Made by a program: the position numbers and the translations under genes. The notes below the pieces were generated by a model that was given only the letters and a program-made list of their open reading frames with translations, was not told the DNA's origin and did no database searches. A stretch of DNA of 64,000 nt from Octopus vulgaris (Eukaryota): assembly GCA_951406725.2 (NCBI GenBank), contig OX597823.1:27156001-27220000 (forward strand), read 5' to 3'. Position 1 is the first letter of the stretch. Every line of letters begins with the position of its first letter. Below are positions 1,765 to 45,051 of this stretch, in pieces.

Positions 1765-2791
1765 AAGAATGGCGAATGCCACCTCGAGTGTCGCGTTGCT
1801 CTCCAGCAACTCTACCGTCCTGGGTCAACCTTCAGCAACTGCATCACCATGGAAGCATTCTATAGGGGATTAGTGGAGGAGAAGTACGACGACGACCTCG
1901 GGACGAACCTGGGCGTCGACGAGGAATACCTGACCCGTTTGTTCAAGACGACTTTCGGGCCGGGACCTATGGACAACTTCCAGAGATCCTTGGCCTGGCA
2001 ATGCTTCCGAGAAGTGCTACCCGAGAAGTGCTCTACAGACATGGCTCGAGAAACACGGTGCAGACCTGCCCGAGATGCGGTCAGAGCGACGAAACCGTTC
2101 TGCACGCACTCGTGCAGTTTCCAACCATTTCCGACATGTGGGCTTATGTCGTACGACTGCTGTCACGTGAGGGACGAGTCGGTTTATCAGCCGAGTCTAT
2201 CGTCAATATTGTCACGCCTCCTTCCTTCAAACGGGAAGGAAGAGCTATTTTTATCGTACTTGTGGCTATGGCAAAAGAATGTATCAATGGACGCGTCTGA
2301 AAGGATTAGAGACAAATACTTTCCTCTCTGGTGAATCTCTCATCAACTTTTTCAAGTATCACTTGAAAAGGAAGGTGAGAGTAGAGAGGGAATTATTGTA
2401 TAGCGAATGTTTCAGGAAAAGATGGGTAAACGTTGCAAGGCTGGTACGTATGAATGACGAAGTCACCTTTGGCATGATCCTATGAACCGAAAAATTTTCA
2501 AACAGAGAGTTACTTATTTGTAAATAAATATGTTAATATGTGACATTATTGCTCGAGGTTGCTGTGGTCTTTTCGTAGGTTTTTCTTTCCACAGATACAC
2601 CTCCCCATTTCTTGGGAACTTTTTGTACCATTTTGACTTTTTATTTTGCATATATCACCAACGATTTCGATCCCATTTGATCGTTGTTCCTCTTTTTTTA
2701 AAAGTTTGCTTTCGCCCCCCACTCTCGAAAAGAAAAACTCTACATTGTAATTGTCCCCTCTGTGTCTAATCCTGTGTGGCCAATAAAGAAA
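1765..2791 (+). mobile_element. 5'-truncated, frameshifted 3' end of an L1/Tx1-like non-LTR retrotransposon
   Basis: zf-RVT-like [25 protein letters not shown] (2001-2300 ORF), then C-terminal ORF2-like WTRLKGL...FFKYHLKRKVRVER...FRKRW, a pyrimidine-rich 3'UTR and AATAAA at ~2782. Flanked by (TATC)n and (TATG)n. Confidence 0.7.
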
Positions 2792-2849
2792 GTTATGTAT
2801 GTATGTATGTATGTATGTATGTATGTATGTATGTATGTATGTATGTATG

Positions 2850-2886
<37 letters not shown>

Positions 2887-2899
2887 GTCCACCTGTCAT

Positions 2900-2970
<71 letters not shown>

Positions 2971-2982
2971 CTCTCTCTATAT

Positions 2983-3742
<760 letters not shown>

Positions 3743-42154: not shown

Positions 42155-42751
42155 TATATATTTATATACGCCACCACGAAGTATAGCCTCTGGCCGTATG
42201 TGAATTTGGTAGACGGAAACCGGAAGAATCTCGTCATATATATATATATATATATATATGCATATATAAACATAGGACGTTACGAACAGTGCATACAATA
42301 TGAAATACGTAAAAGCAGGACAAGTAAACACAGATATCAGGACCCTTCATCAGTTGTTAGCTGTCTATCTACTCCTCTACTCCTCATTTCGAGCACTAAA
42401 CGACAATATGAGTCTTCAAATACAGTTGCTCCCATACATTCTAAAATACAATTTAGGATGTATGCAGCGTCTGCTTACACGAGACCATCGTGAATCTTTC
42501 TTTTCCTCACGTAAACATCATTCCTTTCCTGCGCAGACGTTTAGAAGACTGGACGTTGTTTTATTTCTGTCTCTTCTATCTTTTCTCTTTTCAAAGAAAA
42601 TATTTCTCCCAGCATTCACTAGTTTCCTCTTGTTCTGGTCTGATGATTCTCCATATCTGTTTTCGTTGGGTTTCCTTGTATATCTCCACTGTCCTGTTTT
42701 TGTTCTCAACTTTAACTCTCCATAACTCCTGAATTTTACGTTAGAGTTTAT

Positions 42752-44845
42752 GTTAGAATTGAAGACTCATATTCCTACAATCCAACAAGTTCATATAATT
42801 AATCTCCAAGTTTGCGCATATGATTGCGGCCTTTTTGTCCTGGAGTATGCATCTGAACTGGTCATTGAAACGCTCCAGATACGTTTTTATGTGATCAATC
42901 AAAAATGCGAGCACGCTTAAGATTTTACCACGAAAACAATAAATTTGTTCCTTTCCCGAATGTAAAGGTTTTTCAAATGTCTACAAAAACCACAGAAGTC
43001 GCTCACTTTCTATCACCCACCCAAAAATAGATTACCCCTAGAAAGACGATTAAGAACTATAATTTCTTACATGAACATTCAGAATATATATTATCACCCA
43101 AGTGTTTCCATGTTTTAAGTGAATATTTCGAGCAAAGCTCAAAAAGTAGTCAGGAATCCAATGACAGTAAGACTCAGTAAACCACTTGCCCGCAAAAATC
43201 TTCACACCAGAGAATAAGTGGGTCATAAATTTATCTAACCTAAAACTTTCGCCTGACGATGTCTCAGTTTTGGACTGAGTTTCTTCCCGAGCAATAAGAA
43301 TTTTGACAAGAATAAAGTAGCTTAAGGGCTATTTCAATTTGTACACCGTCAAAAGCTGAATGAATATATATATATTTGAAAAACTGAAAATATAAATGAC
43401 GATGATCGAATCTGGCATAATTGGATTGAAAATAATCTCAATTGGTATCCAGATAAAGTTCGGAATGGACGTTCACAAGCACTACTGGAATTTCTTGAAT
43501 CTTGTCAGGCAGGCATTATAGAAAGCTTTAAAACAAATGGAAAGAAATACTGGAATAACCTCACGAATTCCCAACGTTACGCGATCCGACGTCTAGCTAA
43601 TAATAATTCTATTGTTATTAAAATGGCGGTTAAGGGAGGCGCTATCGTAGCTATGGACAAAAGTGAGTATATTTTGACTTGTGAAGAACTTTTAAATGAC
43701 AAAACTTCATATGAAGAATTACCTGTCAATCCAAACAGGTATATCAGCCGAAACGTTGTGTTAACAGCAAACAAGATGAGGACAAATATCCGTCAAATGT
43801 AAATAATGTAAATAATGTGTGGTTACTGTGAATCACGATTAAAGTAAATAGCAAATGAAATAGCTAAGATTTGAAAAGATAGTCAAACCTTCACGCATAA
43901 TTTTAACAAACACAATACAATAAATGCCAGAATTCCTTTAGTGATTAACTGGCACCGAAATTTCGCTGGCATTTCAAAAGTGTTGCAGAAAAGTTACCAG
44001 CATGTGGCGAACAAATATCCTCGTTTCAAACAGATATTTCCCCAGCCGCCTATTGTAGCTTTTAGGCGGAATAAGAATATGAGAGAATTATTGACCTTTA
44101 TTTCTGAATATAAGAAAACGAACATTGGAGCATCTGCACGCTGTACCTTGAAAACAGCCACAGGAGAAGTAAGCCCTGTTCATTGTGCAACAACATGAGT
44201 GAAGTGAATTCCCTCAAGAATCATAACAGAAATGTTATGATTTATACAGAGGGTGGGACATGTACAGATTCTTATTTGGTGTACGTGGTAGAACGCACGA
44301 AGCACAACTTGATTTATGTTGGTTGTACAACAGAACAATTAAACAAAAGATTTAATGGGCACAGATTCGACGTCAGGCACAATAACAGTAGTTCGACAGG
44401 AGTTGCCGAACATTTCGTTTCAAACGGCTGCAATTTTGAAAAAAGACTTGAAAGTGTATATTCTCAGAAAATATTCTGAATCTGCTTCACTTTCTCTTCT
44501 TAGAAAGCATGAGGAGAAATATGTTTGCAGGTTATCAACATCACGCCCTGGAAGAATGAATAAAATGACAGGAGAATTTATACAAAACTGTTTGATCAAA
44601 TATTCTTTTTTTCCCTTTTCTGTTTTCTTTCCTCTTTTTTTTCTGTCTCTCATTTCTGTCTTTTTCTTTTCGCCTGTTATAAAATTGCAACTTAAGGACT
44701 GATAATGCCATTACATCAACGTGTGGACGCTAGTTGCTCTCGGTCATACTTTAAATTTCTATAATTTCGAAATTTTATCAGCACTTATTTTGAATTTGAC
44801 AAAGACAGACTTACTGTCGAAATATCGTTCAACCAATAAAATATC
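42752..44845 (+). mobile_element. Decayed Penelope-like retroelement: Ulp1-like protease remnant, N-terminal domain, RT core deleted, linker, Zn-knuckle/GIY-YIG, hammerhead-like 3' end
   Basis: VINLSNLKLSPDDVSVL/GLSFFP (43222); NLTNSQRYAIRRLANNNSIVIKMAVKGGAIVAMDKSEY (ADKG region); IPLVINWH...FPQPPIVAFRRNKNMRELL; CTDSYLVYVVERTKHNLIYVGCTTEQLNKRFNGHRFD...VAEHF; EEKYVCRLSTSRPGRMN; AATAAA at 44835. Confidence 0.88.
44790..44832 (+). ncRNA. Degenerate hammerhead at the PLE 3' end
   Basis: TTGAAT-ttgacaa-a-GACAG actta CTGTC-GAAA-TATC-GTTCAA. Stems are intact; the CUGANGA core is mutated. Confidence 0.5.
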
Positions 44846-44917
44846 TTAGAATCGAATCGCGCTCTTCATCTTGACTATTTATCTTTGTGAAGAGTTACGT
44901 AAATCCTTTTCAAAATA

Positions 44918-45051
<134 letters not shown>

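Follow-up and report, generated by a model that had tools for sequence, protein, structure and literature searches.

Architecture of the locus

The window, a stretch of 64,000 nucleotides of the Octopus vulgaris genome (contig OX597823.1, positions 27,156,001 to 27,220,000), contains at positions 42771-44918 a 5′-truncated remnant of a Penelope element (PLE) of Neptune-like type, from which the core of the reverse transcriptase (RT) has been deleted. Telomerase RTs have PLEs as their sister group; PLEs with a C-terminal endonuclease (EN+) have been described as encoding a protein with RT and GIY-YIG domains. The relic and its 3′ border comprise the following features:

42771-42958, plus strand: C-terminal half of a Ulp1/C48-like protease with oxyanion Gln, catalytic Cys and a DQ..MR..L..FP tail (family residues 333-395)
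42959-43221, plus strand: S/T/P/K/E-rich linker leading from the protease to the VINLS domain, with two stops (88 aa in the family)
43222-43736, plus strand: PLE N-terminal conserved region with VINLS, GLSF and a degenerate DKG motif, interrupted by frameshifts and stops
43737-43820, no strand: 84-bp filler without match to the family, replacing the deleted RT core of about 1.0 kb (family nt 2170-3179)
43821-44585, plus strand: remnant of the RT thumb, linker Cys motif and degenerate GIY-YIG endonuclease (Pfam GIY-YIG 23.1 bits, cutoff 22.6)
44586-44918, plus strand: 3′ UTR/pseudo-LTR, the same sequence lying ahead of the open reading frame (ORF) in other copies
44790-44832, plus strand: minimal hammerhead-ribozyme-like motif recognized by sequence pattern, with a previously described U3-A8 core variant (PMC4209133)
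44919-45050, no strand: (TTA)n microsatellite adjoining the 3′ end of the element; other terminal ends adjoin (TAA)n-type repeats

The protease remnant starts with the peptide IPTIQQ at 42771 and reads Q-V-C-A-Y-D-C-G across the oxyanion Gln codon (42807-42809) and the catalytic-Cys codon (42825-42827); the Gly after Q-x, invariant in the family, is mutated in this copy. Past a single frameshift at about 42869-42887, the peptide continues as APDTFLCDQSKMR...FVPFP and ends at 42958. Beyond FVPFP this frame stays open but for two stops, whereas VINLS, from 43222 on, is read in a different frame. The original prediction had described just such a peptide, with one frameshift, two stops and a further frameshift before VINLS, and erred in the start of the peptide, set at 42752, for 42752-42770 is part of an unrelated upstream repeat. 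It had also found the His/Asp part of the catalytic triad unrecognizable; that half is indeed missing, because the copy is truncated at 42771, while Gln and Cys are kept. Further downstream, a Gly-Gly typical of the clade described below is encoded at 44252-44257.

The neighboring repeat occupies 42275-42770 on the minus strand and is very abundant, with 3523 first-look candidates in the genome. An inverted end piece of it often lies beside other copies, and it contains a CTGATGA core; it may be where a different PLE family has its 3′ end.

The octopus family and its reading frame

A DNA search of the source genome (2.8 Gb), in which 40 of 134 candidates were scored, returned 43 matches to the window segment that are 78-86% identical, so that the protease segment of the window is not a chance feature. 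A single alignment leads from the Cys codon into VINLS in all 29 other loci fetched, and in 26 of these the His/Asp segment directly precedes the Cys half. In twenty 9.9-kb loci, taken from the best genome-search matches, the order is pseudo-LTR, NPGP, HxxFL/IPxGL, protease motifs, VINLS, DKG, RT and GIY-YIG. The majority reading of 23 aligned segments, which are 77-94% identical to it (91% for the window copy), is one frame of 1265 codons encoding 1263 aa from the first Met. The frame specifies a 2A-like leader, a helical N-terminal domain, the protease, a linker, the VINLS domain, RT and GIY-YIG. The leader (MID...RIRIGTF, a hydrophobic run and PSVEPNPGP), which is absent from the window copy, and the helical region with HxxFL..C...IPxGL both lie upstream of the protease. 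Stop-free natural frames cover the whole triad region in L017 and L028 and the stretch from protease to VINLS in L014 and L002. The catalytic residues are largely retained in octopus copies (His 16/19, Asp 16/19, Gln 17/21, Cys 19/21). No intact copy was found among 150 scored of 210 genome candidates, and the family therefore looks extinct in this genome.

As in EN+ PLEs, RT and, at the C-terminus, GIY-YIG reside in a single ORF, both in the family reading and by Pfam RVT_1 and GIY-YIG matches on relatives. A pseudo-LTR, in EN+ PLEs a repeat of the 3′ end ahead of the ORF that often has inverted copies, is present as well: the 3′-end sequence lies directly ahead of the ORF start in 9 of the 20 loci (L062, L064, L069, L071, L072, L073, L075, L076 and L079). 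Of 20 pattern matches to a hammerhead, 17 have both stems, and three are chance matches. Judged by this pattern, the family appears to carry the minimal hammerhead of EN+ PLEs, with a U3-A8 core and U4 changed to C in many copies. Rfam, run on four loci, returned microsatellite artefacts only and no hammerhead.

Taken together, these copies bear out most of the original prediction: the upstream segment is retained in other genomic copies, the Cys half runs into VINLS rather than belonging to an adjacent DNA transposon, and the consensus yields one PLE ORF spanning His-Asp-Cys, RT and GIY-YIG. Its view of a protease fused upstream of the PLE ORF has to be abandoned, since PLE sequence lies on both sides. 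The proposed order protease-NTD-RT-GIY-YIG holds insofar as these domains share an ORF; the actual order is leader (2A-like)-NTD1-protease-linker-NTD2 (VINLS)-RT-EN. The protease is thus an internal insertion in the N-terminal region of the ORF: HxxFL and VxNLS are 387 aa apart in the octopus family, as compared with 102 and 179 aa in the protease-less P0267 and P0268.

Eight copies on contigs C16 and C25 (L004, L007, L008, L010, L011, L012, L022 and L030) share an upstream flank and a truncation just before the His, and were therefore duplicated within a larger repeated unit. A divergent full-length copy, L077 (G000:C9:30675500-30685400), is 77% identical to the family majority and probably represents a second, older subfamily.

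Intact relatives and the RT clade

A search of 1.84 billion proteins with an octopus protease profile (HMMER) gave 519 matches at E≤0.001, of which the 150 listed were examined. A search with the RT region gave 410 proteins; the best 120, together with P0023 and P0030, constitute a set of 122 RT-bearing proteins. Among the matches listed, 49 of these 122 contain the protease domain, and His, Asp, Gln and Cys are intact in all 37 relatives that reach the His. At least 28 natural single ORFs from public assemblies, again among the matches listed, combine triad, RT and GIY-YIG, and one of them, P0216, exceeds the Pfam cutoffs for C48, RVT_1 and GIY-YIG together. The intact ORFs are compact (about 1200-1500 aa), which makes the role of the protease addressable by one point mutation. 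The closest library protein among the matches listed is P0002, an Octopus UniRef entry named "Ubiquitin-like protease family profile domain". Word-index searches for longer homologues retrieved none among 725 candidates with L002, and the P0015 protease region retrieved only itself among 376.

In a tree built from the RTs of 121 rows, without P0023 and P0030 (quick search, midpoint-rooted, with sampling seeded from a clade member), a single branch (SH-aLRT 89) has all 48 protease-bearing rows on one side of it and none among the 41 rows on the other. The remaining 32 rows inside the clade lack the protease and have short N-termini; in five clusters with a domain-less representative, 11 of 12 long members carry the triad. 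Two long clade members, P0185 and P0193, were considered as cases of protease loss and rejected: both are devoid of the N-terminal motif, and the triad is found in long proteins from the clusters of their sister rows. Among 32 ORFs whose RT identity within the clade ranges from 39 to 83%, the median protease identity is 43% and covaries with RT identity (48%; Mantel rho 0.78, 0 of 999 permutations). This covariation fits one acquisition followed by vertical inheritance, and we infer that the protease was acquired once, at the base of the clade. A diverse PLE clade has thus kept an intact protease of the ubiquitin-like-protein (Ubl) type almost as strictly as its RT.

A second lineage, on the other side of the RT tree, has taken up a different protease. 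P0248, P0252 and P0264 bear an N-terminal OTU domain ahead of the same PLE N-terminal region, with Pfam scores of 35.5, 26.1 and 20.5 bits (cutoff 23.3, exceeded by two of the three). These are Neptune-like PLEs as well, with OTU, RT and GIY-YIG in one ORF and P0369, P0372 and P0373 as cluster members, and they represent an independent second protease capture.

Fold and active site of the protease

The AF2 model of a natural octopus protease frame (pLDDT 90, pTM 0.86) retrieves SENP/Ulp1 structures as top rows in Foldseek (SENP5/2/1 and Ulp1; best SENP5, E 6e-6). In a VIA structure comparison, Z is 15.9 for SENP3, 15.6 for NEDP1 and 15.1 for both SENP1 and SENP5; overall, SENP/Ulp1/NEDP1 are matched with Z 14-16 and an rmsd of about 3 Å over 157-169 residues at 13-18% identity. 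At the sequence level, a 90-row profile gave 21 matches at E≤1 to PDB sequences, 19 of them C48/clan CE enzymes (best E 2e-5); the 16-row octopus profile gave none in the same kind of search. In the Atlas, 27 of 30 matches fall in Peptidase_C48 clusters, of whose members only 17-39% carry the family in the top three. The C48 profile match that the original prediction had named as a check fails for the two window peptides alone (no Pfam match at E≤1) and is obtained at the family level: Pfam C48 matches 2 of 16 octopus frames weakly (best E 0.0014), and the relatives P0053 and P0216 lie above the Peptidase_C48 cutoff. On the basis of the model and these profiles, the domain is assigned a predicted clan CE/C48-type (Ulp1/SENP) fold. 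The His-Asp-Cys order with an oxyanion Gln that distinguishes C48 enzymes is present in each of the 37 relatives reaching the His.

In the model of an intact relative, P0182 (pLDDT 88), the protease forms a separate domain between disordered stretches (residues 80-88 and 290-359), and its linker to VINLS is disordered (pLDDT<50). Regarding specificity, the Trp after the catalytic His has been linked to di-Gly preference (PMC6759571). By positions taken from a SENP1 alignment, this residue is Trp in 11, Phe in 23 and Tyr in 3 of the 37 relatives, and the upstream tunnel Trp is present in 3 of 34. The octopus family has Met and Phe at the two di-Gly tunnel positions in place of the two Trp of SUMO proteases.

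The 2A-like leader

Across the clade, the leader follows the pattern M-x-D-x-x-x-Y/H-R-x-R-I-G-x-F, a hydrophobic run and DP(S/G)(I/V)ExNPGP (e.g., at oriented position about 2880 of L064). The 2A-like octamer is found in 24 of the 49 protease-bearing proteins, many of the others being N-terminally short. None of the 24 octamers begins with Asp: the first residue is S in 11, G in 6, A in 3, C in 2, R in 1 and N in 1. The expanded 2A core motif, (D/G/C/N)(V/I)ExNPGP (PMC12846837), accommodates this residue in 9 of the 24; the Ser of the octopus family (11 of 13 copies) lies outside it. 2A-like peptides have been reported for APE-type LINEs (PMC3708506, PMC12846837, PMC12338488, bioRxiv 10.64898/2026.06.17.732966). 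Like the 2A/StopGo peptides of those non-LTR elements (Odon et al. 2013, PMC3708506; PMC12846837), the leader of the clade is N-terminal and presents (V/I)ExNPGP after a hydrophobic run and before the enzyme domains. It differs in the octamer, never Asp-initial and Ser-initial in the octopus family, and in its host, PLEs being without mention in the accessible text of Odon et al. A PLE 2A-like peptide was likewise not found in the running text of the four sources cited, whose peptide tables could hold PLE entries. As judged by its motif, the hydrophobic leader with xVExNPGP may be shed during translation or tune the protein level, and 2A-like leaders are hereby extended from APE-type LINEs to PLEs.

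Comparison with known elements

The family shares with EN+ PLEs of the Neptune clade (Craig et al. 2021, PMC8557442) the single ORF with RT followed by a C-terminal GIY-YIG, the pseudo-LTR, the hammerhead motif and the microsatellite-adjoining ends. Its RT and thumb motifs resemble by eye the Neptune1_Ap/Ac rows; reference Neptune elements are not part of the RT tree, so that "Neptune-like" rests on these motifs. Unlike Neptune elements, it features an extra protease of ~160 aa and linker in the N-terminal region, the 2A-like leader and Gly-Gly before the GIY motif, and the linker Zn finger is lengthened or lost in the clade: the CX2-5CxxC finger of Neptune is C-x11-CxxC in the octopus family and C-x4-CxxC in the basal P0128, and many clade members are without it. 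The two Cys that Neptune elements have between GIY and YIG (CCHH finger) appear as CxxC in some members and as CxxH in the octopus family and many others.

A protease-like domain in a PLE has one precedent in the literature consulted, Chlamys-1_cBra (Craig et al. 2021), with homology to Josephin that is reported as weak; this domain belongs to a different protease clan, is C-terminal and occurs in a clade with N-terminal EN. The same survey (PMC8557442) lists PHD, SAP and the weak Josephin-like motif in Chlamys elements, and Ulp1 goes unmentioned in the sections consulted. An Ulp1-like protease ahead of the RT in a single retroelement ORF is known from NeSL and Utopia-1_TSP (PMC4640811), which, in contrast to the family, are RLE-type non-LTR elements of nematodes with an N-terminal protease. 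Ulp1 or OTU domains are also carried by Ginger1, Mutator (PMC2836005) and Crypton (PMC3212892), DNA transposons in which the protease is C-terminal or on a separate protein; Ginger1 transposases display the same alternation of Ulp1 and OTU (PMC2836005) that is now seen in PLEs. Relative to cellular SENP/Ulp1/NEDP1 (MEROPS C48, clan CE), fold and His-Asp-Gln-Cys order are the same; the clade protease differs in its 13-18% identity, in having both tunnel Trp mostly replaced and in being embedded in a retroelement protein.

The feature is real: a clade of Neptune-like PLEs has a Ulp1-type protease inside its ORF, along with a leader of 2A-like type. Ulp1 domains in transposons are known; a PLE bearing one was not found in the literature searched, which includes the accessible part of PMC6431247, and prior curation is possible in Repbase or in most subscription journals, which lay outside its scope. 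"Penelope" and "Ulp1" are mentioned together and never linked in the text consulted of PMC4640811, PMC3212892, PMC10175614 and PMC3482391. With this clade, PLEs are added to the classes of transposons known to bear a Ulp1 or OTU domain; since Ulp1 capture by transposons recurs, the surprise is moderate. The window copy is dead, and the interest lies in the family.

Possible roles of the protease

The broken state of the window copy, which adjoins an unrelated repeat at 42770, and the related protease domains in the non-PLE proteins P0155 and P0076 would be in keeping with a protease that stems from a separate transposon or neighbors the PLE by chance. The probability of this is negligible: 29 of 29 copies are collinear, PLE sequence flanks the protease on both sides, and at least 28 natural ORFs contain all three domains; the variant with an adjacent DNA transposon is ruled out by the collinear copies, the family ORF and these natural ORFs. 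One ORF, a Ulp1/SENP fold, a complete His-Asp-Gln-Cys in every intact relative and co-inheritance with the RT have to be accounted for. SUMO participates in transposon silencing. The explanation we favor, and hold to be somewhat probable, is that the protease works as a tethered isopeptidase, taking SUMO or some other Ubl tag off the element's complex or off host silencing and repair proteins. The domain would be catalytically active; held by flexible linkers, it would act in cis and could strip tags at the insertion site. Two observations favor a Ubl substrate: enzymes acting on SUMO and NEDD8 have the nearest folds, and PLEs resemble Ginger1 in carrying Ulp1 or OTU, a parallel that points to the Ubl system as target. 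We lean toward a Ubl in general; SUMO itself is possible yet doubtful. SENP3, NEDP1 and SENP1 tie in Z, so that the fold does not establish SUMO as the substrate, and strict SUMO specificity seems disfavored by the replacement of both tunnel Trp in most members. The SENP identity of only 13-18% also weighs against the favored explanation, as do the weak Pfam C48 matches in just 2 of 16 octopus frames, the SH-aLRT of 89 for the branch in a quick tree seeded from the clade, and the lack of an intact octopus copy among the 150 candidates scored. A role of Ulp1/OTU domains in transposition has so far only been proposed (PMC2836005).

Alternatively, the long protein of the element might itself be what the protease processes, in the manner of viral clan CE proteases; a cut after Gly-Gly before GIY-YIG, for instance, would release the endonuclease. 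Of 65 protease-clade proteins, 47 have Gly-Gly no more than about 14 residues ahead of the GIY motif (most often as IxGG, 22/47), against 0 of 36 others, and the altered Trp positions could mean relaxed specificity. The adenovirus CE protease has a consensus of the form (M/I/L)xGG. In target-primed reverse transcription, in turn, RT and EN are expected to remain joined in cis, which speaks against release. The adenoviral consensus is common to ubiquitin and viral substrates (PMC1847702). However, Gly-Gly is missing in 18 of the 65 clade proteins, including P0018 and P0174 with intact triads. Moreover, both Gly columns are among 21 clade-diagnostic columns that arose on the same branch and are therefore not independent evidence for self-processing. 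In the P0182 model, Gly-Gly lies in a well-ordered endonuclease loop (pLDDT 95-96) rather than in a disordered linker, and the Cys after it matches the linker Zn-finger position in the Fig. S2 header of PMC8557442. Self-cleavage is thus considered unlikely, and Ubl removal the likelier activity; of the two functions put forward in the original prediction, polyprotein processing is therefore weaker than the countering of SUMO-dependent silencing. A domain that acts on a specific non-Ubl host protein, or serves mainly as a SUMO/ubiquitin binder steering the complex to chromatin, would agree with the replaced tunnel residues in most members and the low identity to any solved C48 enzyme, but pure binding is hard to square with a catalytic set (H, D, Q, C) that is invariant in 37 of 37 relatives, and hydrolysis of a Ubl is what the parallel lineage with OTU points to, which leaves this proposal rather improbable. 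A broader scheme draws several strands together and strikes us as more speculative still: an old, hitherto unrecognized PLE clade with a self-processing protein, in which a non-canonical StopGo sheds the leader and the internal CE protease has two tasks, taking off SUMO-type marks and cleaving the clade-specific IxGG so as to release or switch on GIY-YIG, with the sister OTU lineage as a similar anti-Ubl solution.

Related protease domains outside PLEs

Two further kinds of protein carry related domains. In P0076 (598 aa), a related Ulp1-like domain precedes a segment that resembles, by eye, the beginning of an APE-type endonuclease, which suggests that a LINE has the same subfamily of protease; the protein gave no Pfam match. 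In P0145 and P0155, from a Clytia UniRef cluster, the related protease is C-terminal in a protein of 1369 aa that has no RT motif and perhaps belongs to a DNA transposon, and here both tunnel Trp are kept.
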